From Solirubrobacteraceae bacterium (GTDB lineage Bacteria > Actinomycetota > Thermoleophilia > Solirubrobacterales > Solirubrobacteraceae): a stretch of DNA of 64,000 bases. The stretch covers positions 31,259 through 95,258 of the forward strand of contig JBMFHK010000001.1 of NCBI GenBank assembly GCA_049976865.1. The letters are read 5' to 3'. A model generated the notes under the pieces. That model was not told where the DNA came from, did not search any database, and saw only the letters and a program-made list of their open reading frames with translations. How positions within the stretch are numbered: the first letter of the stretch is position 1; every line of letters starts with the position of its first letter. Position numbers and translations under genes: made by a program. This document shows, piece after piece, positions 3,961-64,000 of this stretch.

Positions 3961-4701
3961 TCATGAGCGTGCCAGCTGTCGGGCCTTCGTCCGGCGCAAT
4001 CTGAGGACCAGCGCCAGCGCTTCCAGGGCGATCATGAAGGACATTTTGCTTTGGCCGGCGGTGCGGTCAGCAAAGACGATCGGGACCTCCCGGACTTTGA
4101 ATCCGGCCTGCAGAGCGCGGTAGGTCAGCTCGATTTGAAACACGTAGCCGTCCGCGCGGAGAGAGTTAAGATTGATCGTCTCCAGGACGCTGCTGTGGAT
4201 GCACTTGAATCCGCCGGTGAGATCCCGGACTGGGACGCGCAGCACGGTCCTTGCGTAGGTGCTTCCTCCGCGGCTGATAAGCCGTCGCATGAGACCCCAG
4301 TTCTGTACCGCACCACCGCGAACGTAGCGTGATCCGAGCACTAGGTCTGCTTCTTGCGCAGCGGCGACCAGGTCCTTGAGATAGCCTGGGTGATGGGAGA
4401 AGTCCGCATCCATTTGGATGACCATCTCCGCACCGTTGGCGAGTGCTTGCTGGAAACCTGCAATGTAGGCGCGTCCGAGTCCCTGTTTGTCCGGCCGGTT
4501 GAGAATCTCGACGTGCTCATTGGTGGCAGCGAGCTGATTGGCCAGCTTGCGCGTGCCGTCCGTAGAGTTGTCATCGACGATCAGGATCCGGTAGTCGCTG
4601 CCGGTGATCGCGGCCATCTCTGTGCTGACCGCGTCTACGATCGGCTCAATGTTCTCAGCCTCGTTGTAGGTCGGAATAACAACCCAGATCCGTGCGCTCA
4701 T
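3961..4701 (-). CDS. ppm1: polyprenol/dolichol-phosphate mannose synthase (GT2)
   Basis: The N-terminus VVIPTYNEAENIEPIV, followed by ILIVDDNSTDGT and QMDADFSHHP, are GT2 DPM1-like signatures. Confidence 0.85.
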   Translation of the reverse strand: MSARIWVVIPTYNEAENIEPIVDAVSTEMAAITGSDYRILIVDDNSTDGTRKLANQLAATNEHVEILNRPDKQGLGRAYIAGFQQALANGAEMVIQMDADFSHHPGYLKDLVAAAQEADLVLGSRYVRGGAVQNWGLMRRLISRGGSTYARTVLRVPVRDLTGGFKCIHSSVLETINLNSLRADGYVFQIELTYRALQAGFKVREVPIVFADRTAGQSKMSFMIALEALALVLRLRRTKARQLARS

Positions 4702-4752
4702 TGGCGACCAGCGTAAACCGAAATGTGAACGGCTGCTTAGCGAAGGACGTGC

Positions 4753-4762
4753 GCCCTAAGCA
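4753..4762. repeat. target-site duplication, left copy (GCCCTAAGCA)
   Basis: An identical 10-mer occurs at 6229..6238, immediately outside the right inverted repeat. Confidence 0.8.
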
Positions 4763-6228
4763 CAATACTGATAACTTAGTGTCCGAGGCTTGGGTTATGG
4801 TTGTCGCGTGCCTCGGTCTGGTTGGGTCAAGCCGGTCAGTGATCAGCGTTTGTCGGATCACATCTCGATTGGTGTTCTGACACGGGTGTTCCCGTCGGAG
4901 CTGGTCGACGCGGTGATCTTGGAGGCGGGGCGTGTTGAGCGCCGGTCGCGGTTGTTGCCGGCGCGGGTGGTCGTGTACTACGTGTTGGCGATGGCGTTGT
5001 TCGCGGACTCGTCGTATGAGGAGGTGATGCGTCAGCTGGTGGAGGGGCTCTCGTGGACGTCTGATTGGCAGCGGACGTGGGAGGTGCCGAGCCGGGTAGC
5101 GATCGCGAAGGCACGTCAGCGGCTGGGACGCGAGCCGCTTGAGCTGCTGTTCGCGGCGGTCGCCTCACCGCTGGCGGGGCAGGCCACGCGCGGGGCGTTC
5201 TACCGCGGGCTGAGGCTGATGAGCGTCGACGGGACGTGCCTGGATTTGGCTGACACACCGGAGAACGATGCGGAGTTCGGGAGGCCGGGCTCGTCGCGTC
5301 GTGTGGGTGGCGGCGCGTTCCCACAGTTGCGTATAGTCGCGCTGTCAGAGACCGGGACGCACGCGATCACGGACGCGGCGCTCGGGCCGTACCGCAGTTC
5401 GGAGAACGCGCTCGCTGATGAGCTTCTCGGGGCGCTGAAAGACGGCATGTTGTGTCTGGCCGACCGTGGCTTCTACAGCTTTGAACGGTTCGAGAACGCC
5501 CGTCGCACCGGGGCGCAGCTGCTGTGGCGGGTGAAATCGAACATGCTCCTGCCGCGCGAGCAGCAGCTCCAGGACGGGTCGTACCTGACACGCATCTACA
5601 GCTCTCAGGACGATCGGGGCGCTAAGCGCGATGGTGTCGTGATGAGGGTCGTGGAGTACGGGATCGATGATCCCGGCGTGCCTCAGGCCGAGCAGCGCTA
5701 CCGGCTGCTGACAACGGTCCTTGACCCGGACGCCGCGCCCGGCTCTGAGCTCGCGAACCTCTACTCCGAGCGCTGGGAGCTTGAGGGCACGCTCGACGAG
5801 CTCAAAACCCATCAGCGTGGCCCGCGCGCGGTGCTGCGCTCAAAACACCCCGACGGTGTCTACCAGGAAGCGTACGGGTACCTGTGCACGCACTACGCGA
5901 TCCGCCGGCTGATGCACGACGCTGCGCTCACCGCAGATCTCGACCCTGACCGATTGTCGTTCACCAGAAGCCTCCGCGCCGCACGCCGCTCAACCCGCTC
6001 GCACCCGGGATTTTTTCCCCCACAGCATCGCCACAGCCCACCAGCAAGCGGTCGCTGAAATCCTCGCCCAGCCACTCCCCGAACGCCGGCAACGCGCCCA
6101 GCCAAGGGTCATCAAACGCAAGATGAGCAAATGGCCGGTCAAGCGCCCCGAACACCGCGACTGGCCCCAGCCAACCAAACCGCCCGACAAAACGATCACC
6201 ATCCTAGCCGCCTAAGTTATCAGTCTTG
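4763..6228 (+). mobile_element. IS4-family insertion sequence (1466 bp) with 17-bp terminal inverted repeats
   Basis: IRL 4763..4779 is CAATACTGATAACTTAG. The reverse complement of IRR 6212..6228 is CAAGACTGATAACTTAG (16/17 match). The element is flanked by a 10-bp direct repeat and contains one transposase gene. Confidence 0.85.
4790..6215 (+). pseudogene. IS4-family DDE transposase with N-terminal IS4 domain; reading frame broken at a T6C5 homopolymer
   Basis: ORF 4790..6058 carries the IS4 N-terminal signature (ISIGVLTRVFPSELVDAVI...RRSRLLPARVVVYYVLAMALF). The expected C-terminus (HSIATAHQQAVAEILAQPLPERRQRAQPRVIKRKMSKWPVKRP...) continues in another frame from ~6021. It ends at TAA 6213..6215, inside IRR. 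The frames switch at GGATTTTTTCCCCC (6008..6021). Confidence 0.75.
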
Positions 6229-53917: not shown

Positions 53918-54610
53918 GTGGGCGCTGAGCTTTCAGGAAGGCACGTGGCGCCGTCGATCCTGGCGGCTGACTTTGCACGGCTTGGCTCGCAGGTGCAGGA
54001 CGTGCTGGACGCAGGAGCCCGGATCATCCACGTTGATGTGATGGACGGGCACTTTGTGCCGCCCATCACGTTCGGCCCCAATGTCGTGGCGGCGTTGGCT
54101 GAGCGCATCCACGGCTCCGGTGCGCTGATTGACGTCCACCTGATGATCGAGCGTCCGGAACGGCAGCTGGCGACGTTCATCAGCGCTGGCGCCGACAGCA
54201 TCACGATTCATGTTGAGGCCACGCCACACGTTCATTACGCGCTGCAGGCGGTGCGGGAGGGCGGATGCAGCGCTGGCGTGGCGCTCTCTCCGGCCACGCC
54301 GGGCTCGGTGCTGGCGGACGTGGCGGCCGACGGCATGCTCGATCTGGCACTGTGTATGAGCGTCAATCCTGGCTGGGGCAACCAGACGCTGATCGGCAAC
54401 TCCTATGCCAAACTTGCGGCCATGCGTGCTGCACTGCCGGCGCTGGTCGCGCTCGAGGTTGACGGCGGAATCAACCTCGAAACCGCGAGGCGTGTGGCGC
54501 GGGCGGGTGCCAACCTGCTGGTCGCCGGCTCAGCGGTGTTCGGGGCGGCCGAGCCAGGCGCAGCCTGGCAGGAGCTCACCCGCTCCGCGTGGCCAGCGGC
54601 GCAGTCATGA
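53918..54610 (+). CDS. rpe: ribulose-phosphate 3-epimerase
   Basis: Contains VAPSILAADFARLG and HVDVMDGHFVP. The GTG at 53918 is preceded by GGGAGG; the longest ORF starts at 53909. Confidence 0.9.
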   Translation: MGAELSGRHVAPSILAADFARLGSQVQDVLDAGARIIHVDVMDGHFVPPITFGPNVVAALAERIHGSGALIDVHLMIERPERQLATFISAGADSITIHVEATPHVHYALQAVREGGCSAGVALSPATPGSVLADVAADGMLDLALCMSVNPGWGNQTLIGNSYAKLAAMRAALPALVALEVDGGINLETARRVARAGANLLVAGSAVFGAAEPGAAWQELTRSAWPAAQS

Positions 54611-54653
54611 CGGTGGGCACTGCGGTTACAGCGGCCATATCCTTCTAACCACT

Positions 54654-55793
54654 GTGCCTGTGCAAACGGAACCGGACGTTACCTTTCTGCGACGCGCCAT
54701 TGAGCTGGCCGCGCGGGGCGGCACCGCTGTGCGACCCAACCCGCAGGTGGGTGCGGTGATTGTGCGTGACGGCGAGGTGCTCGGGGAGGGGTTCCATCAC
54801 AGGGCCGGGGCGGCACACGCCGAGGTCGAGGCCATCAGGGCGGCTGGCGGGCGGGATCTGAATGGTTCGACGATGTATGTGTCGCTTGAGCCGTGCAGCC
54901 ATCATGGCCGAACACCGCCGTGCACCGACGCGATCCGTCAGGCCGGTATCAGCCGCGTTGTGGTCGCGGTGGAGGATCCGTCAGACCACGCCTCGGGTCG
55001 CGGCTTGGGGATCCTTCGCGACGATGGCATAGAGGTGGTTGTTGATGATGGTGAGCTGGCCCAGCTGGCACGGTTGCAGAACCAGCCGTTTCGTAAGCGC
55101 GCGCGCACCGGACTGCCCTGGGTGTTGTTCAAATCGGCGATGTCACTTGACGGCAAGGTGGCCACACGCAGCGGCGATTCGCGCTGGATCTCCGGCTCGC
55201 AGAGCCGGGCGCTGGTCCATCAGTGGCGTGCCACAAGCGATGCGATTGTCGTGGGGATCGGCACGGCGTTGTCCGACGACCCGCTTCTGACAGCCCGCGC
55301 CGGGGGCTCCGAGTCAGAGCAGCTGGCCGAACACCAGCCCCGCCGAGTGGTCTTTGACTCGCTGGCGAGGCTGCCGCCCACAGCAAAACTGCTTGACAGT
55401 GTTGCGCAGGCTCCGCTGACAGTGATCGTCTCGCGTGCGGCGCCACGTACGGCGACCGACGCGCTTGAAGCTCGCGGCGCGGAGGTCATCTGGGCGACCG
55501 GTGAGAACGAGCCGGCGCGTGTGCGCTCAGCGCTCAGTCAGCTTGGCTGCGCAGGCGTCAGCGCGCTGCTGCTGGAGGGCGGTCCGCACCTCGCCGGCGC
55601 GTTTCTGGAGGCTGACCAGATAGATGAGATCAGGCTGTTCATGGCGCCGATCGTGTTGGGGGGCCGGGGATCACGCGACCCACTTGAGAGCGAGGGTGTG
55701 GAGAACATCGAAAGTGCTACAAGGGCGCTCCAGTTCAGCCATACCCAGATCGGTGAGGACATTCTGCTGATTGCCCGCATGAAGGAGTGGTGA
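54654..55793 (+). CDS. ribD: bifunctional diaminohydroxyphosphoribosylaminopyrimidine deaminase / 5-amino-6-(5-phosphoribosylamino)uracil reductase
   Basis: Contains HAEVEAI and the YVSLEPCSHHGRTPPC deaminase zinc site, plus a reductase C-terminal domain. The start is approximate (GTG 54654). Confidence 0.9.
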   Translation: MPVQTEPDVTFLRRAIELAARGGTAVRPNPQVGAVIVRDGEVLGEGFHHRAGAAHAEVEAIRAAGGRDLNGSTMYVSLEPCSHHGRTPPCTDAIRQAGISRVVVAVEDPSDHASGRGLGILRDDGIEVVVDDGELAQLARLQNQPFRKRARTGLPWVLFKSAMSLDGKVATRSGDSRWISGSQSRALVHQWRATSDAIVVGIGTALSDDPLLTARAGGSESEQLAEHQPRRVVFDSLARLPPTAKLLDSVAQAPLTVIVSRAAPRTATDALEARGAEVIWATGENEPARVRSALSQLGCAGVSALLLEGGPHLAGAFLEADQIDEIRLFMAPIVLGGRGSRDPLESEGVENIESATRALQFSHTQIGEDILLIARMKEW

Positions 55794-55798
55794 GCAGC

Positions 55799-56398
55799 GT
55801 GTTCACGGGTCTGGTGGCCGATCTGGGGTCGGTGCTGGAGCTGCAGCCAAGCGCCGACGGTGTGCGTATCCGCGTGGCAAGCTCGCTGGCAGAGAGCATC
55901 ACAGTCGGCGACTCGGTCGCGGTCAACGGCGTCTGTCTGACGGCAACGGCCATCCAGGGTGACGGTTTTACAGCCGACGTCATGAATGAGACGCTGCGCC
56001 GCAGCTCACTGGCAGAAGTGAGGCCCGGAACGGCTGTCAACCTGGAGCTCGCAATGCGGTTGTCCGATCGGCTGGGCGGGCACATGGTCCAGGGGCATGT
56101 TGACGGCGTTGGCGTCGTGACCGAGGTTGTTCAGGACGGGTTCTCGCGCCGCCTGACGATCGTTCCCCGTGCGCCGGGGCTGCTGCGGTATATGGTTGAG
56201 AAGGGATCAATCACGGTAGACGGGATATCACTTACGGTTGCGGGGCTGGGCGAGGGCTCCTTTGCCGTGTCGCTGATCCCTGAAACGCTCGCGCGGACCA
56301 GTCTGGGGCGCGCGCAACCGGGAGTGACCGTCAACTTGGAGGTTGATGTGCTGGCCAAATATGTTGAGCGACTGATGTCAGAGAGGAGTGCCCGATGA
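55799..56398 (+). CDS. ribE: riboflavin synthase (alpha chain)
   Basis: [10 protein letters not shown] at the N-terminus and an internal duplicated barrel ([10 protein letters not shown]). Confidence 0.9.
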
Positions 56399-57705
56399 GC
56401 ACTGTGACCAGCCCATTTGCCACCATCGAAGCGGCGGTTGAGGATCTCCGTCAGGGCAAGATGGTTGTGGTCTGTGATGACGAGAACCGTGAGAACGAGG
56501 GTGATCTTACGATGGCCGCCCAGTTCGTCACCCCGGAGGCGATCAATTTCATGGCCAAGGAGGGGCGCGGCTTGATCTGTCTTGCGCTCACGCCGGAGCG
56601 CTGCGATGAGCTTGGTCTGAACCTCATGGCAGCCAAGAACGAGTCATCGTTCCAGACCTCGTTCACCGTATCAATCGAGGCGCGCACGGGCGTGAGCACC
56701 GGCATCTCCGCTGCCGACCGGGCGCGCACCATCCAGGTCGCCATCGACCCGGCCAGCGGACCGCGCGAGCTGGTTCAGCCCGGCCACGTCTTTCCGCTGA
56801 AGGCCAAGCCCGGCGGCACGCTGGAGCGGGTCGGCCAGACCGAGGCGGCGGTTGATCTGGCGCGCATCGCGGGTCTGGTCCCAGCCGGGGTGATCTGCGA
56901 GATCATGAACGATGACGGCAGCATGGCGCGCGTGCCGGATCTCACCAAGTACTGCGCCAAACATGGCCTGAAGATGATCACGGTGGCTGACATCGTCGCC
57001 TACCGGCGGCGCACCGAGAAGCTCGTCGAGCGGGTCGTCGCGACCAACCTGCCAACCGCTTTTGGAGACTTCGTCGCCGTTGGCTACCTCTCGCTGGTGG
57101 ACGGCAAACACCACTTGGCGCTGGTTAAGGGTGAGGTGCAGGGCGCCAAGAATGTGCTTGTCAGGGTGCACTCGGAATGTTTGACCGGCGACGTGTTTCA
57201 CTCACTGCGATGTGATTGCGGCGACCAGCTGGAAGCGGCGCTGCGAATGATCGAGGCGGAGGGGACCGGTGTGCTGCTGTACCTCAACCAGGAGGGTCGT
57301 GGAATCGGCTTGCTCAACAAGTTGCGCGCCTACAAACTGCAGGAGGAGGGATTGGACACCGTTGAAGCCAACCTTCGCCTTGGACTGCCGGCGGATCTGC
57401 GTGACTACGGGATCGGTGCCCAGATCCTGGTTGATCTGGGACTCACCTCCATCCGGCTTCTCACCAACAACCCGAAGAAAATCTCCGGGCTTGCCGGTCA
57501 CGGCCTGTCAGTCACCGACCAGCTTCCGATCATCCTCCCGGCAAACCCCTACAACCAGGAATATCTGAACACCAAGCGCGACAAGATGGGGCACATGTTG
57601 CCGGGGCACCATCATGAGCTGGCGCTCGAGGAGGAACTGTTCCACGACGGTGCCAGGTCGACACGCTCCCAAGCCCAGCGTGAGGATGATCGCGGTGAGC
57701 GGTGA
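56395..57705 (+). CDS. ribBA: bifunctional 3,4-dihydroxy-2-butanone-4-phosphate synthase / GTP cyclohydrolase II
   Basis: Contains [11 protein letters not shown] and [24 protein letters not shown]. Confidence 0.95.
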
Positions 57706-58162
57706 GGAGCGCCTGGCAATCTGTGTTGCGCGGTTCTATGAAGAGCTTGCCGATTTGCTTGAACAGAGCGCACGTGAGGCTCTTGAGCAGGCCGGTGTCA
57801 GCGCCGTTGACCGGTTTGCGGTGCCCGGCGCCTTTGAGCTGCCGCTGATCTGCCGCTATGCCGCTGAGAGCGGCCGCTATCAAGCGATAGTCGCGCTGGG
57901 CGCCGTTATCAGAGGCGAGACGGATCACTATGACTACGTGTGCGGCCAGACAGCCGCCGGCATCCAGCAGGTGCAGCTGCGAAGTGGTGTGCCGATCGGT
58001 TTCGGTGTTCTCACGGTCGACACGATGGAGCAGGCGCGGGCCAGGGTGAGGGGGGGCGCAAAGCGGGACACTGCCGTACACGCCGCGCACGCGGCGCTGG
58101 CGTCACTGGCGGTCAGACGGGAGCTCGCGCAACGGCCGCGACCAGCCGGCTTTGCGACATGA
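57686..58162 (+). CDS. ribH: 6,7-dimethyl-8-ribityllumazine synthase
   Basis: Contains VPGAFELP and [13 protein letters not shown]. The start ATG at 57686 overlaps the ribBA end by 20 nt. Confidence 0.9.
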
Positions 58163-58590
58163 ACGCCAACGCGCCTGACGACTTTGATCGCGCTGCAATA
58201 CCGGCTGTGCCCGCGGTTGAGGAGCTCGTCCAGATCGGGGCGGCGGCGGGCGCGCTGGGCGTCAGTGTCGACACGCTCAGGCGCTGGGAGCGGGCTGGTC
58301 GGGTGTTATTTGAGCGCCGCGGGAACCGCCGTTACATCTCCGCTGCGCAGCTTGCCAGGCTTCTGCATGATCGAGGTGCTCACAGCAGCTCAAGCGCCCG
58401 CAACCATCTTGCAGGCGTTGTTGTGGCCGTCAAGCGTGACGGCGTGATGGCTCAGATCGATATGGTCTGTGGGCCGTTCAGGGTGGTGTCCTTGATGTCC
58501 CGTGAAGCCGCCGACGATCTGGGGCTGGAGGTAGGTGTCAGCGCCACGGCGGTCATCAAGTCAACCAACGTGGTGGTTGAGCGTTTCTGA
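58159..58590 (+). CDS. MerR/excisionase-type HTH fused to a TOBE (Mop, molybdate/tungstate-binding) domain
   Basis: The HTH reads LVQIGAAAGALGVSVDTLRRWERAGRV. The C-terminal SARNHLAGVVVAVKRDGVMAQIDMVCGPFRVVSLMSREAADDLGLEVGVSATAVIKSTNVVV is a typical Mop/TOBE fold sequence. The start forms an ATGA overlap with ribH. Confidence 0.75.
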   Translation: MNANAPDDFDRAAIPAVPAVEELVQIGAAAGALGVSVDTLRRWERAGRVLFERRGNRRYISAAQLARLLHDRGAHSSSSARNHLAGVVVAVKRDGVMAQIDMVCGPFRVVSLMSREAADDLGLEVGVSATAVIKSTNVVVERF

Positions 58591-58648
58591 GCGGCTGACC
58601 TAGCCGCAAACCCTGCGTGGCGCACAACGTCCTATACTGCTGCGCTGT

Positions 58649-58840
58649 ATGTCAAAGGTCTGCCACGTATGCGCCAAGGGTCCATCTTTTGGCCACAGCC
58701 GCAGCCACTCGATGGTTGCCACCAAGCGCCGCTTTGATCCCAACCTCCAGAGGGTTCGGATCGACGAGGGCGGCACTCCGCGCCGTGTCTATGTTTGCAC
58801 GCGCTGCCTGAAGGCCGGCAAGGTCACCAAGGCTCGCTGA
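58649..58840 (+). CDS. rpmB: 50S ribosomal protein L28
   Basis: Starts [36 protein letters not shown]. It carries both CxxC pairs (zinc-binding form). Confidence 0.95.
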
Positions 58841-58862
58841 GCCAGTTCGTCGCGCCTTTCCG

Positions 58863-60497
58863 GTGAGCGATCCAGCGATCCTTCGCTTCCGCGCTTTAGT
58901 GGAGGCGGGCCTTGTTGGGCTTGAGGCCCGCAGGCAGGAGGTCAACAACCTCAACGTTTTCCCGGTCGCTGACGGAGACACCGGCGACAACATGGTTCTG
59001 ACGCTGCGTGCCGTGCTTGATGAACTTGACCAGCTTCTGGAGAGTTCCGAGCATCACACGATCGACGAGATCGGTCGCGAGCAGATCGTCGAGTCGGTGG
59101 CCCGGGCCGCGCTGCTTGGTGCACGCGGTAACTCAGGGGTGATCCTCTCACAGCTGATCAGGGGTGCGGCCGAGGAGCTGGTCAGCCGGCCCGGGGAGCT
59201 GGTCGACCCCGTGTTGATCGGTGCGGCACTGGCGCGTGCCGCCGACCAGGCCTACGGATCGGTCCGGGAGCCCGCTGAGGGCACCATCCTCACCGTTGCG
59301 CGCGAGATGGCTACACGTGCGGCGTCTGAGATCGCGCACATGCCGCAGGCGCGTTTGCGGCCGGGGGCCACTCATGAGCAGCAGGATGCGGCTGCCGCCG
59401 AGATCATCGAGCGTGCGCTGCAAGCCGGCCAAGAGTCGGTTGCACGTGGCCCGGATCTGCTACCCGTGCTGCGGGAGGCCGGGGTTGTTGATGCCGGTGG
59501 TTACGGGCTGACGGTGCTGCTGGCAGGGATGGTCGGCTCGCTGCGCGGCGGCGAGCCTGTCCAGATCGAACGTCACGCTGCGGCTCGGATCACCCATCCT
59601 CAACACGTTTCTGCGACCTTTCGCTACTGCACGAACTTTGCGGTCACTGGCACACAGCTTGATCAGCGTGCCGCCGTCGAGGCGCTGGAGCGGCTGGGTG
59701 ACTCGGTGCTGGTGGTGGGCGACACCTCGACGCTGAAAGTGCACGTCCACACCGACGACCCTGATGCTGCTGTGGCCTGCTTCGGCGGGCGCGGCGCGAC
59801 GGTGTCAAGGATTGACATCGCCGATATGAACGTGCAGGTCAGGCAGCGCGACGCACGGCTGCTCAAGCGACGCTGTGCTGGGCTCGCGGTGGTCACCGGT
59901 GACGGGTTCCGTGAACTGTTTGAGGGGCTTGGCGTGTCTGTGATCGAGGGTGGCCCAACGCTCAACCCTTCCACTTATGACCTTTTGGCTGCGATCCATG
60001 CGGTCGGCTCCGAAGAGGTCGTGGTTTTGCCCAACAACAAGAACGTGTTCATGGCTGCCGAACGCGCAGCGCAGCTGGCCGACCAGGACGTGCACGTCGT
60101 TTACTCGTCATCTCTGCAGGCCGGGCTGGCGGCGGCGGTTGCCTTCAAACCCGATCATGGTGCCGATGTGAACGCTGCCGAGATGGCCCGGGTGGCCGAT
60201 GCGGTGCGCACCGGCGCTGTGGCTCAGGCGGCACGAGACGACGCTCAGGGTCGCTTCAGCGCCGGCGAAGCAGTGGGGTTTCTAGACGGCGAGATCGTCG
60301 CCTGGGGCTCGCCCCAGGCGACGTTGGCGGCGGTGATCAAACAGCTGGGCGCTGGCGCGGAACTGGTGAGCGCTCTGCGCGGGGTGCACGCGCCGCTGGA
60401 CGATGAATCGGTGCGGGCGCTGGCTGGGCACGAGGTAGACCTTGAGATCGGTTACGGCGGCCAGGCGGGTTACTGGTGGCTGTTGTCGGCTGAGTAG
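58863..60497 (+). CDS. DAK2-domain fusion protein, YloV family
   Basis: The N-terminal DhaL/DAK2 pattern (VFPVADGDTGDNM, GARGNSGVILSQ) is followed by a DegV-like C-terminal half. It sits in the conserved rpmB-yloV-recG neighbourhood. Confidence 0.8.
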   Translation: MSDPAILRFRALVEAGLVGLEARRQEVNNLNVFPVADGDTGDNMVLTLRAVLDELDQLLESSEHHTIDEIGREQIVESVARAALLGARGNSGVILSQLIRGAAEELVSRPGELVDPVLIGAALARAADQAYGSVREPAEGTILTVAREMATRAASEIAHMPQARLRPGATHEQQDAAAAEIIERALQAGQESVARGPDLLPVLREAGVVDAGGYGLTVLLAGMVGSLRGGEPVQIERHAAARITHPQHVSATFRYCTNFAVTGTQLDQRAAVEALERLGDSVLVVGDTSTLKVHVHTDDPDAAVACFGGRGATVSRIDIADMNVQVRQRDARLLKRRCAGLAVVTGDGFRELFEGLGVSVIEGGPTLNPSTYDLLAAIHAVGSEEVVVLPNNKNVFMAAERAAQLADQDVHVVYSSSLQAGLAAAVAFKPDHGADVNAAEMARVADAVRTGAVAQAARDDAQGRFSAGEAVGFLDGEIVAWGSPQATLAAVIKQLGAGAELVSALRGVHAPLDDESVRALAGHEVDLEIGYGGQAGYWWLLSAE

Positions 60498-60503
60498 CCT
60501 AGA

Positions 60504-61790
60504 ATGACCGGCAACGATCAGCTGATGACCGCCAACACTGCGAATCTTTCGTCGCTCGCGGGTAGCGCGTTGGTCGACTCCAACGGCGAGAAGCTTGGAC
60601 GGGTCCAAGATGTCATTGCGCGCCTTGATGCGGGCGACTCGTTGCCGCCGGTGGTGGGTCTGAAGTCGCGGATCGGCGGACGTGAGATGTTCGTGCCGAT
60701 CACGCACGTTTCCCAGCTGGGGCCGGCGGCCGTCAAGACGGCGACCACGAAGCTGAATCTGGCGCAGTTTGAGCCGCGACCCGGCGAGGTTCAGCTGCGC
60801 CGCGATCTGCTGGACCGACGGGTTATTGATGTCGCCTCAGCGCGGCTGGTTGCAGCCCACGAGGTTCTTCTGGCGCAGCAGGATGGTGTCTGGCGTGTGA
60901 CGGCGATCTACCCCAGTCTTAAGCCGCGCTTGTGGCGTCTGCTGCCCAGGCGGCTGCGAAGCGGCGACCTGGACCCGGCAAACTTCGTACCGTGGCACGA
61001 GATTGAGCCCTTTGTTGGGCATGTGGCAGGCTCGCGTCTGAAGTTGACCTCGCGTCGTCTTGCGCGGTTGCACCCAGCTCAGATCGCCGACCTTGTGGAG
61101 GCCGCCTCTCACGAAGAAGGTGAAGAGATCATGGCGGCGGTCGGCCAGGACAAGGAGCTGGAAGCGGACGTCTTTGAGGAGCTCAACGACGAGCATCAGG
61201 TCGAGTTTTTGCGCGAGCGCTCTGATGATGAGGTGGCGGGCGTGCTGGCTCGCATGGCGTCTGACGACGCCGCGGACCTGTTGCTGGAGATCGAGCAGGG
61301 CCGCAGGCTGAGCGTCCTGAACCTGTTGCCGGCGGGCAAGCAGGTGAAGATCCGCAGTTTGCTGGGACACAACCCGGCGACGGCAGGCGGCATGATGAAC
61401 CCTGATTTTGTGGCGGTTGATGCCGACGACACGGTCGCCAGCGCGCTGCGCAAGGTGCGCGCCAGTGAGATCGGCGTCCAGCTTTTATCGACGGTCTGTT
61501 TGGTGGATGGCGCCGGTGTACTGCTGGGCACCGTCGGGCTGGATCAGCTTATTCGTGCCGCTCCTGAAGCGAGCCTGTCCAGTCTGCTCGTTGACGAGGC
61601 GCAGACGCCGAGCGTCTCACCGGAGGAGGATCTCCCCGAGCTCGCACGTCTGATGAGCGACTACAACCTGATTGCGATGCCGGTCGCCGACGCTGACGGC
61701 AAGCCGGTCGGGATGATCGCTGTTGACGACGTGCTTGAGCTTCTGATCCCCGATGAGTGGCGCCGCCGTACATCGGGCGCTCGCCAGTGA
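60504..61790 (+). CDS. soluble PRC-barrel + MgtE-N + CBS-pair protein (MgtE cytosolic module without a membrane domain)
   Basis: Two PRC-barrel-like segments come first. The MgtE_N pattern follows (HPAQIADLVEAAS...MASDDAADLLLEIE...LLGHNPATAGGMM), then two CBS motifs. The protein ends at ...VLELLIPDEWRRRTSGARQ with no TM helices. Confidence 0.75.
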   Translation: MTGNDQLMTANTANLSSLAGSALVDSNGEKLGRVQDVIARLDAGDSLPPVVGLKSRIGGREMFVPITHVSQLGPAAVKTATTKLNLAQFEPRPGEVQLRRDLLDRRVIDVASARLVAAHEVLLAQQDGVWRVTAIYPSLKPRLWRLLPRRLRSGDLDPANFVPWHEIEPFVGHVAGSRLKLTSRRLARLHPAQIADLVEAASHEEGEEIMAAVGQDKELEADVFEELNDEHQVEFLRERSDDEVAGVLARMASDDAADLLLEIEQGRRLSVLNLLPAGKQVKIRSLLGHNPATAGGMMNPDFVAVDADDTVASALRKVRASEIGVQLLSTVCLVDGAGVLLGTVGLDQLIRAAPEASLSSLLVDEAQTPSVSPEEDLPELARLMSDYNLIAMPVADADGKPVGMIAVDDVLELLIPDEWRRRTSGARQ

Positions 61791-61996
61791 GTTGCCGGCG
61801 TCGGTGTGCCACTCGCCCTGCCGGGTTAGAATCGCACCTGATGGGTGATCAGATCCCACTCCAAGACTGTGATCCGCCGCGAAGTCGTCGCGCGACGGTG
61901 GTGGCGACGGTCGCTGCGGTTACTGCCTGCTAGGGCAGGTCTGGCACGGCCTCCTGCCCTCGCCGCTTGGCGCCAGCAAGAAAGGAGGTCGAGCAC

Positions 61997-63649
61997 GTGA
62001 TGACGACGAAACGTGACGAGCAGCTGACGGTCCACCCAACCAGGCAGCGCGCGGTGCTCGACCCAGCCCACGTCGGTGACATCCGTGGTGCGTTTGGAAC
62101 GATCCACCAGCATGAGGGCGCGGCTCACAGCGTCCGCGGGCGTGCGCTGGCGCTGCTTGCGATTGTCGGCCCCGGATTGATCGTCATGGTCGGCGACAAC
62201 GATGCAGGGGGCGTCGCCACCTACTCACAGGCTGGTCAGAACTACGGGCTGAGCCTTCTGTGGGTGCTGATCCTGCTGGTGCCTGTGCTGATTGTCAACC
62301 AGGAAATGGTTGTTCGGCTGGGGGCCGTCACCGGGGTTGGTCACGCGAAGCTGATCAACGAGCGGTTCGGCCGATTCTGGGGCTGGTTCTCCGTGGGAGA
62401 TCTTTTTCTTCTGAACTTTCTGACGATCGTCACAGAGTTCATCGGCGTCAGCCTGTCTCTCGGGTACTTTGGAATCTCCAGGTACGTTGCTGTACCTGTA
62501 GCGGCCGCGGCTCTGGTGGCGATTACGGCGAGCGGCAGCTTTCGAGTTTGGGAACGCTCCATGTTCGTGTTCGTGTTTGCAAACCTGCTGGTCATCCCGC
62601 TGTTCTTCATCGCCCATCCGCACTACTCGACGATCGCGCGAGATCTGGTGATACCAGGTATCCAGGGTGGGGCCAACTCTACGTCGGTGTTGCTCATCAT
62701 CGGCATGGTGGGAACCACCGTCGCACCTTGGCAGCTGTTCTTCCAGCAGTCCAACATCATCGACAAGCGCATCACTCCACGCTGGATCAACTACGAGCGG
62801 CTCGACACCTACGTGGGTGCGCTGGTTGTGGTGATCGGGGCTGCCGCGATCATCTCGGTTTCGGCGTCCGCCTTCCAACACACCGCCTACTTCGGTCAGT
62901 TCACCAATGCGGGCGCAACCGCATCCGCATTGGCCCACATCCTGGGATCCATCCCAGCAGCGCTGTTCGCGGTGGTGCTGCTCAACGCGTCGCTGATCGG
63001 CGCCGGCGCGCTGACCTTGTCGACCAGCTATGCGTTTGGTGACGTGTTTGGCACAAAGAGCTCATTGCACCGCAGCTTCGCCGACGCCAAGCTGTTCTAC
63101 GGGATTTTCAGCGGTCTGATCGTTGGCGCCGCACTGATCGTGCTGATTCCCGGCGCGCCCCTGGGCGTGATCACGCTGGCCGTGCAGGCGCTTGCCGGGG
63201 TCCTTTTGCCCAGCGCGAGCGTCTTTCTGCTGCTGCTGTGCAACGACCGGGAGGTCCTTGGTCCCTGGCGCAACCCGTTCTGGCTCAACGTGGTCGCAGG
63301 CGTGATCATCGCCATCCTGATCCTGTTGTCACTGATCCTGATGGGCACCACGTTGTTCCCGAGCGTGAACGTCACGGCGCTGGCACTGGCCGGCGGTGGC
63401 GCCTTGCTGGCAGGTCTGATCGCGTTCAGCTTGGTGGCGTTGCGGGGCCGACGTCATCTGGCTGCGGTTACGGGCAGCGAGCCGGCCTCTGCGATTGCAA
63501 AAGAGGACTGGACGATGCCCTCGCTGGCGCTGCTCGGCCGGCCGGAATGGTCGACCGGACGCAAGCTCGCGATGCTGACCCTGCGGGGTTATCTGCTGAT
63601 CTCCGTCGCGCTGCTGGTGCTCAAGGCGGTGCGGCTCGGTGGTGGGTAG
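61997..63649 (+). CDS. NRAMP/SLC11-family transporter with NRMT-type (Mg2+-type) binding-site substitutions
   Basis: About 11-12 TM segments. The TM1 motif is GDNDAGGV (canonical DPGN becomes DAGG). The TM6 motif is GTTVAPW (canonical GATVMPH, so Ala becomes Thr, Met becomes Ala and His becomes Trp). A strong SD (AGGAGG, 61983..61988) precedes GTG 61997 / ATG 62000. Confidence 0.8.
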   Translation: MMTTKRDEQLTVHPTRQRAVLDPAHVGDIRGAFGTIHQHEGAAHSVRGRALALLAIVGPGLIVMVGDNDAGGVATYSQAGQNYGLSLLWVLILLVPVLIVNQEMVVRLGAVTGVGHAKLINERFGRFWGWFSVGDLFLLNFLTIVTEFIGVSLSLGYFGISRYVAVPVAAAALVAITASGSFRVWERSMFVFVFANLLVIPLFFIAHPHYSTIARDLVIPGIQGGANSTSVLLIIGMVGTTVAPWQLFFQQSNIIDKRITPRWINYERLDTYVGALVVVIGAAAIISVSASAFQHTAYFGQFTNAGATASALAHILGSIPAALFAVVLLNASLIGAGALTLSTSYAFGDVFGTKSSLHRSFADAKLFYGIFSGLIVGAALIVLIPGAPLGVITLAVQALAGVLLPSASVFLLLLCNDREVLGPWRNPFWLNVVAGVIIAILILLSLILMGTTLFPSVNVTALALAGGGALLAGLIAFSLVALRGRRHLAAVTGSEPASAIAKEDWTMPSLALLGRPEWSTGRKLAMLTLRGYLLISVALLVLKAVRLGGG

Positions 63650-63705
63650 GCTCACTGCCTGCGGTCTGCTGTGGATAGGTCCGGCCATGGGTTCACAGTT
63701 TGGGT

Positions 63706-64000
63706 ATGGCGCGAGCGTTTGCGCAGTCCACAGAACTGACCGCTGAGCAGCTGCGCCTGGCGCCCGTGCGTCTGCCGCGCCCCGCGGTCTTGGATGCGGC
63801 GCTACAGCTAAAGGGTTCAAAGGCGGCCACAGCGGCGCAGGTGCTGGGCCTGAGTACGGTCGGCGATCTGCTTGAGCACCTGCCGCGTGACCGGCGTGAC
63901 GCCTGTGTGATTGCCGAACTGCAGATAGGCCAGACGGCGACGCTTGTCGTGCAGGTAAAACGGATAGCCGCACGTCCTGTACGCCGCCGCGGCATGCGTC
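63706..64000 (+). CDS. recG: ATP-dependent DNA helicase RecG, N-terminal fragment (3' end outside the window)
   Basis: The frame is open from ATG 63706 to the window end. AAQVLGLSTVGDLLEHLPRDRRD and then IAELQIGQTATLVVQV match the RecG N-terminal wedge-domain pattern. It is absent from the ORF track because no stop codon falls inside the window. Confidence 0.7.
   Translation, partial: MARAFAQSTELTAEQLRLAPVRLPRPAVLDAALQLKGSKAATAAQVLGLSTVGDLLEHLPRDRRDACVIAELQIGQTATLVVQVKRIAARPVRRRGMR

Follow-up and report, generated by a model that had tools for sequence, protein, structure and literature searches.

The NrmT group of NRAMP-related (SLC11) transporters was named by Shin et al. 2014 (PLoS Genet, PMC4072509), where most NrmT genes were noted to adjoin a gene for MgtE's N-terminal cytoplasmic domain; feedback regulation of the transporter from the cytoplasm by this MgtE-like fragment was speculated, with 'metal chaperone activity' as an alternative role for the partner, and an M-box riboswitch was described upstream of a subset of NrmT operons. 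A pair of this kind lies on the + strand of a 64,000-nucleotide stretch of a Solirubrobacteraceae bacterium (GCA_049976865.1, contig JBMFHK010000001.1, positions 31,259 to 95,258), the whole of which is referred to here as the window, with a gene for a soluble MgtE-like protein (60504..61790) preceding that of an NRMT-clade SLC11 transporter (61997..63649). The author of an earlier note on this DNA was not aware of any characterisation of the arrangement; both the adjacent MgtE-fragment gene and the idea of regulation in trans were already published in 2014, so the arrangement is not new (PMC4072509), and a full-text literature search returned no follow-up on the partner after that year. What the present survey adds is that the PRC barrel and the Mg-site ligands are general features, that the gene order is permuted, and that one clade has cytoplasmic motifs of its own.

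Two further systems frame the comparison. EleNRMT, the Mg2+ transporter of Eggerthella lenta, transports Mg2+ and Mn2+, not Ca2+, without H+ coupling, and is described as lacking a proton path; transport is severely impaired when D55 or Q379 is mutated, whereas T224 is critical for Mg2+ and far less so for Mn2+ (Ramanadane et al. 2022, eLife, PMC8806188). In MgtE, inter-domain Mg2+ sites let the cytoplasmic region serve as a Mg2+ sensor. The window pair shares with the NrmT operons and EleNRMT the transporter clade, the metal-site residues and the adjacent soluble gene for an MgtE N domain and CBS pair, and with the NrmT operons also the proposed role, cytoplasmic feedback regulation. In contrast to those operons, it has no M-box, and in its place stands a leader with a small open reading frame (ORF) and a hairpin pairing with the ribosome-binding site (RBS); the ATP-contact residues of the partner are lost in the window's clade; and, compared with EleNRMT, the transporter bears a motif conserved near its N-terminus and, at the other end, a further ~100 aa that include two extra helices. 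The partner was called a 'small protein' in the 2014 description, in which the PRC-barrel region goes unmentioned (PMC4072509).

Transporter and soluble partner

Both ORFs were confirmed on the + strand at the coordinates given above, the family matches of both proteins have E-values far beyond chance, and the identities of the two genes are held to be close to certain. The transporter (550 aa) starts at GTG 61997, which occupies the position of the ATG in relatives and lies 8 nt 3' of GGAGG, or at ATG 62000. It matches the Pfam Nramp family (E 1e-79), and its best PDB match is EleNRMT (7qia, E 1.3e-60), followed by an ordinary NRAMP at 2.5e-21; identity to EleNRMT is ~45% over the aligned core by hand count and 33% over the full length in a MAFFT alignment. 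The metal-site motif of transmembrane helix (TM) 1, D69-A70-G71-G72 (62201..62212), forms with N68 the column-for-column counterpart of NDAGG in EleNRMT, and that of TM6, G239-T240-T241-V242-A243-P244-W245 (62711..62731), falls likewise on GTTIAPW. All five tested site residues match (D69 = D55, G72 = G58, T240 = T224, A243 = A227, Q397 = Q379). The signature separates the clade from ordinary NRAMPs: the helix-1 Asp is kept and the Asn replaced by Gly, Ala and Met of helix 6 become Thr and Ala, and helix 10 contributes Gln, while Trp245 replaces the first helix-6b His of the H+-coupling path (MPH to APW). The reading of the site as DAGG and GTTVAPW in the earlier note is thus no misalignment and holds against EleNRMT; the second gene encodes an NRMT-clade SLC11 transporter, equipped with the residues by which the enlarged, all-hard-ligand Mg2+/Mn2+ site is defined in EleNRMT.

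Two segments set the window transporter and its relatives apart from EleNRMT. The N-terminal motif VLDPAHVGDIRGAFGTI (aa 20-36, 62054..62104) is conserved throughout the actinobacterial 550-aa subfamily, and its consensus, VLDxAHxGDIxGAFGTI, is absent from other NRMT clades, EleNRMT included. The C-terminal extension (63350..63646), identified by alignment and hydropathy and missing from the same clades, contributes two hydrophobic helices, at aa 462-480 and at aa 524-542, as well as a basic loop, KEDWTMPSLALLGRPEWSTGRK, that is conserved with the subfamily consensus KE.WTMP.LALL.RP. Canonical NRAMP topology and the positive-inside rule would place both the N-terminal motif and this basic loop, between TM12 and TM13, in the cytoplasm.

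The upstream gene encodes 428 aa if read from ATG 60504 and 421 aa from ATG 60525; database homologues of 417-426 aa start at the equivalent of the latter, which on this comparison is the more likely start. Residues are given here in 428-aa numbering. Pfam places a PRC-barrel domain at aa 15-71 (60546..60716; PF05239, E 1.6e-8), the helical MgtE_N domain at aa 189-290 (61068..61373; E 7e-17) and a pair of CBS domains at about aa 297-414 (61392..61745; E 1.6e-16), and in an AlphaFold2 (AF2) model with a mean predicted local distance difference test score of 81.8 a second beta-rich domain directly follows the barrel, at about aa 92-137, ahead of the helical MgtE_N and the CBS pair. PRC barrels serve as protein-protein adaptor domains, as in RimM and the H subunit of the photosynthetic reaction centre. 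Sequence comparison with the PDB returns the cytosolic domains of MgtE (E about 1e-22), as does a Foldseek search with the model (top matches, E 1e-18 to 1e-15).

The pore domain of MgtE was not detected in the protein. The NCBIfam model TIGR00400 (mgtE) reaches 98.8 bits where its cut-off is 232.75, and the match is confined to profile positions 26-252 of 450; no match to the five-helix MgtE membrane domain PF01769 was found with Pfam; the chain ends 13 residues past the second CBS domain (CBS2) with no hydrophobic helix; and its highest 19-residue hydropathy, 1.84, falls within a CBS strand. The composition proposed earlier for this gene, a PRC barrel, MgtE_N and a CBS pair without a membrane domain, is thereby borne out. 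Relative to the MgtE of Thermus thermophilus (TtMgtE; PDB 2yvx, 2yvy, 5x9g), the N domain and CBS pair are homologous (sequence E about 1e-22, fold E about 1e-18), whereas the transmembrane pore is missing, which rules the partner out as an MgtE channel; its plug helix is cut short, other residues stand in place of those that bind ATP, and the N-terminal PRC barrel and second beta domain are gained. By domain content and predicted fold, then, the first gene encodes a soluble homologue of the MgtE cytosolic sensor with a PRC barrel in front.

Retention of the Mg2+ ligands was assessed with TtMgtE numbered in its alignment with the window protein, the numbering having been checked against residues named in two papers (I28, I84, E59, D91, D95, Y170, R187, D188, N203, F227, D226, D247 and D250). 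At the inter-domain sites, D91 and D247 of Mg4 correspond to D254 and D409 of the window protein, D95 of Mg6 to D258, E59 of Mg7 to D222, and D250 and D226 of Mg5 to E412 and N388, so that five of the six positions are acidic and the predicted acidic ligands of Mg4, Mg6 and Mg7, with one half of those of Mg5, are retained by the partner. All of 113 NRMT-associated partners have an acidic residue at the D247 equivalent, and 111 of them at that of E59; at the equivalents of D91 and D95, Asp is without exception in the actinobacterial and Eggerthella-type groups. The ATP contacts of TtMgtE have fared differently: Y170, R187, D188, N203 and F227 are replaced by T330, D347, Q348, V363 and L389, and these positions are unconserved in actinobacterial partners, whereas those of the Eggerthella type, like many others, still have the Tyr and the Arg. 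With these contacts replaced, Mg2+ sensing without MgtE-style modulation by ATP is to be expected in this clade, where ATP sensing is probably not involved.

Inheritance of the pair across phyla

Association of the two genes was surveyed in two collections. A first scan, of one genome per species with an NRMT alignment as query, kept the best 80 loci, all of the 550-aa subfamily, from Solirubrobacterales, Acidimicrobiales, Mycobacterium, Nocardia, Streptomyces, Streptosporangiaceae, Chloroflexota and others; five have no upstream sequence, and 72 of the 75 informative loci have the partner upstream and on the same strand, where it aligns with the window protein from about residue 8-14 through to the last. 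Metagenome contigs were scanned second and ordered by how similar they are to EleNRMT, which gave a much more diverse set (33-97% identity). Of its 65 informative loci, 59 have the partner as a same-strand neighbour; it lies upstream in each of the 20 Eggerthella-like loci, as it does in loci of the actinobacterial type, and downstream in a third group, a large one. Over both collections the pair is present in 131/140 informative loci. Partners are soluble throughout, with at most 56 residues past the W419-equivalent column just beyond CBS2, and almost always include the PRC region across clades; the divergence of partner and transporter is correlated (identities to the window proteins, r = 0.74, n = 65). 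Partner and transporter are inherited together across phyla, and co-occurrence, the absence of which had been set beforehand as grounds for abandoning the functional link, is found on the same strand even where the order is permuted.

Co-variation of the PRC barrel with the C-terminal extension of the transporter was considered and rejected: Eggerthella-type partners have the PRC region next to transporters without the extension, and the barrel is therefore independent of the clade-specific transporter segments.

Variations on the arrangement were also encountered. In six loci (L018, L019, L020, L050, L058 and L081) unrelated genes of 1.1-2.1 kb, some on the opposite strand, are inserted between partner and transporter; by eye we take these to be hydrolase- or peptidase-like. 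Three loci encode, close to the NRMT pair, a paralogue of the PRC-MgtE_N-CBS protein with a small membrane protein of the DUF1003 type directly after it (L005:11977-14190, - strand; L021:7675-9389, - strand; L014:7578-9271, + strand), the paralogue being about 28-33% identical to the partner in L014 and L021 (tblastn). Such pairing suggests that the soluble sensor family associates with more than one kind of membrane protein. In L005, a long-read contig, frameshifts break up the NRMT gene itself (L005:10150-11930), which is read as several ORFs, through assembly error or as a pseudogene.

Proposed regulation in trans and the alternatives

EleNRMT is an uncoupled uniporter without a cytosolic domain, and uptake through such a protein, driven by the membrane potential, would need to be shut off. 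MgtE is shut off by its cytoplasmic Mg2+-binding domain, and CorA is likewise closed by one of its own. For a transporter that has neither coupling nor cytosolic domain, a separate shut-off subunit would be a reasonable solution, and the soluble partner could supply it: rising cytoplasmic Mg2+ would bridge the N and CBS domains through the ligands of Mg4, Mg6 and Mg7, and the compacted partner would dock on the cytoplasmic face of the transporter and block transport, with the VLDxAHxGDIxGAFGTI motif and the TM12-TM13 loop as candidate docking sites. That the two proteins work together in some way can be proposed with good confidence; Mg2+-dependent regulation of the transporter by the partner in trans is the most likely mechanism, for and against which we judge the balance about even.

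Several observations count against such gating. Co-expression of the Acidobacterium capsulatum partner left Mg2+ rescue by its transporter unchanged, and that transporter rescued a Mn2+ defect, and a Mg2+ defect only at millimolar Mg2+; the NrmTs of Clostridium acetobutylicum work without a partner in heterologous hosts (PMC4072509). EleNRMT works without one too, in liposomes among other settings, and EcoDMT mutated to the NRMT signature still does not transport Mg2+, so the site signature alone does not confer this activity (PMC8806188). Within the window partner, one ligand of Mg5 is Asn (N388, equivalent to D226), and D226N belongs to a loss-of-function double mutant in TtMgtE; moreover, the plug helix, which provides Mg2 and Mg3 in MgtE, has shrunk to a short C-terminal helix of about 13 residues, so that both sites are absent. 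Finally, three actinobacterial loci and one NRMT subclade, marked by the TM1 sequence FLMVFGPGLIV, are without an adjacent partner. No adjacent partner was seen at L109, L110, L150, L158, L163 and L164, which have at least 1.5 kb on both sides, nor at L123, L134, L155 and L161, whose contigs are too short for certainty; most of these ten loci have the subclade's TM1 sequence.

A first alternative makes the partner a positive or accessory factor, either a metallochaperone, to which Mg2+ or Mn2+ would pass at the transporter's inner vestibule, or a protein on which activity or stability depends when metal is scarce. Ion hand-off would agree with the large number of conserved acidic residues in the partner, and the adaptor character of PRC barrels would suit attachment to another protein. 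The 'metal chaperone activity' of Shin et al. 2014 is this alternative in its published form (PMC4072509). However, heterologous hosts and liposomes have supported NRMT function with no partner present, Mg2+ at millimolar concentration needs no chaperone, and the homologous MgtE module closes a channel; an accessory role is accordingly regarded as unlikely.

Comparably unlikely is a pair that handles and senses Mn2+ or another divalent cation and not Mg2+. The A. capsulatum results stem from an NrmT with an adjacent MgtE fragment and would be accommodated by such a pair, as would the transport of Mn2+ by EleNRMT and the lack of an M-box at the window locus. Other observations argue against it: T240 is kept, the equivalent of the T224 that matters far more for Mg2+ than for Mn2+; identity to EleNRMT over the aligned core is ~45%; the ligands retained by the partner are those of the MgtE Mg2+ sites; and M-box riboswitches precede related operons.

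The partner might, thirdly, make no contact with the transporter and act as a CBS-type sensor of Mg2+, nucleotides or ionic strength on some other target, being merely co-regulated with its neighbour. The paralogues paired with DUF1003 in L005, L014 and L021 indicate that the module is not exclusive to NRMT, and genes have been inserted between partner and transporter in six loci; yet across phyla the two genes stay neighbours on one strand while their order and context change, and the DUF1003 pairing would fit equally well with sensors that each act on a neighbouring membrane protein, which leaves this explanation distinctly improbable. Chance adjacency or an annotation artefact is refuted by the recurrence of the pair in two independent collections and has practically no probability.

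Leader, genomic setting and significance

Between the two genes lies a spacer of 206 nt (61791..61996), overlooked in the earlier note, which holds the feature regarded here as the most novel of this interval. In most loci of Solirubrobacterales and Acidimicrobiales, 115-430 nt between the genes of the pair can belong to neither ORF, and within the window's clade an alignment shows the spacer to be conserved. A profile built from the spacer gives 22 strong and two weak matches in about 1.6 Mb of collected locus sequence, every one immediately 5' of an NRMT gene even where another gene separates the partner, and the leader stays with the transporter where inserted genes split the pair (L018, L019, L020 and L058). 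By this distribution it is a conserved, undescribed element of about 22 Solirubrobacterales loci.

No Rfam 15 family matches the leader at gathering score. A match to the DUF1874 RNA (21.3 bits against a gathering score of 42) and one to V_AS9 outside the spacer (56502-56613, E 0.035, below threshold) were taken as chance. Searches for the M-box (RF00380), with E up to 1 over 54000-64000 and with E up to 5 over the spacer, gave no match. M-box riboswitches do stand upstream of operons in which NRMT precedes the partner, at L117:3793-3969 (130 bits) and L136:4267-4442 (120 bits); in L117 an ORF of 120 aa (4423-4782), presumably a heavy-metal-associated-type domain by its look, lies between M-box and transporter. 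In common with leader-peptide and Shine-Dalgarno-sequestering attenuators of Mg2+ transporter genes, such as the Salmonella mgtA leader with mgtL and the M-box, the window leader would be a cis-acting region directly 5' of a probable Mg2+ transporter gene, with a short ORF that includes Pro and Arg codons and RNA structure predicted to govern access to that gene. It shares no sequence or Rfam similarity with either the mgtA/mgtL leader or the M-box.

The leader contains a small ORF of 30 codons, MGDQIPLQDCDPPRSRRATVVATVAAVTAC (61841..61933), supported by conservation in 19 related leaders, the peptides of which follow M..(Y)QDSELPRSS.... Its codons vary synonymously (Leu CUU/CUA/CUG/UUA/UUG, Pro CCG/CCC/CCU, Gln CAA/CAG) around an invariant CGA-AGU, and entropy over the core is highest at third codon positions (6.1 against 4.0 and 3.4), as expected of coding sequence. 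Several of these codons (CGA, AGU, CUA, UUA, UAU and CAA) are rare in high-G+C genomes. Beyond PRSS the nucleotides remain conserved while the reading frame differs between genomes, so that the first half of the ORF alone is constrained as peptide. A -10-like hexamer read from the sequence, TAGAAT (61827..61832), lies 8 nt 5' of the small-ORF ATG, which would make a leaderless internal transcript possible; TAnnnT boxes recur at the 5' end of the leader in relatives, and a generic sigma-70 scan does not call the window hexamer. The same hexamer also stands ahead of the partner gene (60500..60505), overlapping ATG 60504 and 19 nt 5' of ATG 60525, and the two boxes may be promoters of short-leader or leaderless transcripts.

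Downstream, a predicted hairpin, GCCUGC-UAGG-GCAGGU (61925..61940), carries the stop codon of the small ORF (61931-61933) in its loop. Equivalent hairpins occur in 18 of the 22 leaders, with 13 different stem sequences and a U-G-A-rich loop, and in 12 of these 18 the stop codon is likewise within the loop. A second predicted helix (61950..61988), seen in both minimum-free-energy (MFE) and centroid folds, would mask the RBS by pairing CCUCC (61950-61954) with GGAGG (61984-61988), a G+C-rich hairpin being enclosed between them. CCUCC lies 29-38 nt 5' of the transporter's GGAGG in 20/22 leaders, MFE folds pair it with the Shine-Dalgarno sequence (SD) in 17/22, the window included, and a compensatory change from A-U to G-C is present in L019. 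Consensus folding of 14 leaders (RNAalifold on a MAFFT alignment) yielded -3.8 kcal/mol with little covariation because the variable hairpins align poorly, and per-sequence folds with tabulation of hairpins were used in its place.

Control of transporter translation by the leader is probable on these grounds and would add a second layer of regulation in this clade, the small ORF and the SD-pairing hairpin acting on expression; translation of the transporter is possibly conditional, perhaps on that of the small ORF. Three results speak against this layer. The window leader folds no better than shuffled sequence (z = -0.64, in a G+C-rich context), so that the case for it rests on conservation. 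An erm- or mgtL-like switch was modelled by refolding the 22 leaders with the small ORF forced unpaired to 13 nt past the CGA codon, or with the region around its stop codon unpaired, and in that form found no support: the mean probability of an unpaired SD moved from 0.08 to 0.10 and 0.18, and the simulated ribosome positions do not consistently free it. Lastly, L001, the closest relative in the same genomic context, has no leader.

A broader proposal, which we regard as tentative and more doubtful than the gating mechanism itself, would make the free-standing MgtE-type sensor, docked through its PRC barrel, a portable Mg2+ gate for unrelated folds (SLC11 and DUF1003), and the leader of Solirubrobacterales a translation-based Mg2+ sensor analogous to Salmonella mgtL in function but unrelated to it, in which translation of the rare-codon ORF (..DSELPRSS..) would set the accessibility of the transporter RBS.

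The locus is that of an uncultured actinobacterium from soil, and its nearest relatives, by sequence matches, are uncultured Solirubrobacterales. In the window the pair is flanked on the + strand by yloV upstream (58863..60497; DAK2/FakA-like, with TIGR03599 above its curated cut-off and Pfam support) and by the N-terminus of recG downstream (63706..64000, starting near 63706 and cut by the window end), and the order 5' of the pair is riboflavin operon, MerR/TOBE regulator, rpmB and yloV. Among 83 related loci, yloV and/or recG adjoin the pair in the window, L001, L006 and L007 alone, L006 having no upstream sequence and showing the recG side only; in L004 the same pair is placed between purE and other purine genes. 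Such varied contexts indicate that the pair behaves as a moved unit, and the earlier proposal that it is an insertion between yloV and recG gains support from them. The locus can be described, with roughly even confidence, as a two-gene Mg2+-uptake module inserted between these genes, its Mg2+ role being one that we infer from sequence.

Base composition offers no guide to origin. G+C falls to 0.58-0.61 over 62000..63250 from ~0.65 nearby, while T is in marked excess (AT skew reaching -0.31), and this low G+C of the transporter gene was set aside as a sign of foreign origin, being uninformative where a T excess is typical of membrane-protein genes. Further upstream, the MerR-type helix-turn-helix and TOBE protein (57940..58590) lies between ribH and rpmB, directly after the ribD-ribE-ribBA-ribH operon, and is shorter in relatives (137 aa in L001).

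NRMTs constitute the fourth class of bacterial Mg2+ importers, and for the avoidance of Mg2+ overload through an uncoupled protein such as EleNRMT, which has no regulatory domain, the almost universal partner is the obvious candidate valve. If the mechanism proposed here is true, the sensor domain of a channel would here be a subunit in its own right and act on a transporter whose fold is another, and the survey narrows the acidic residues and the clade-specific cytoplasmic segments of the transporter that would be relevant to gating. The compact leader is in turn a candidate new regulatory element for the expression of Mg2+ transporters in high-G+C Actinomycetota.

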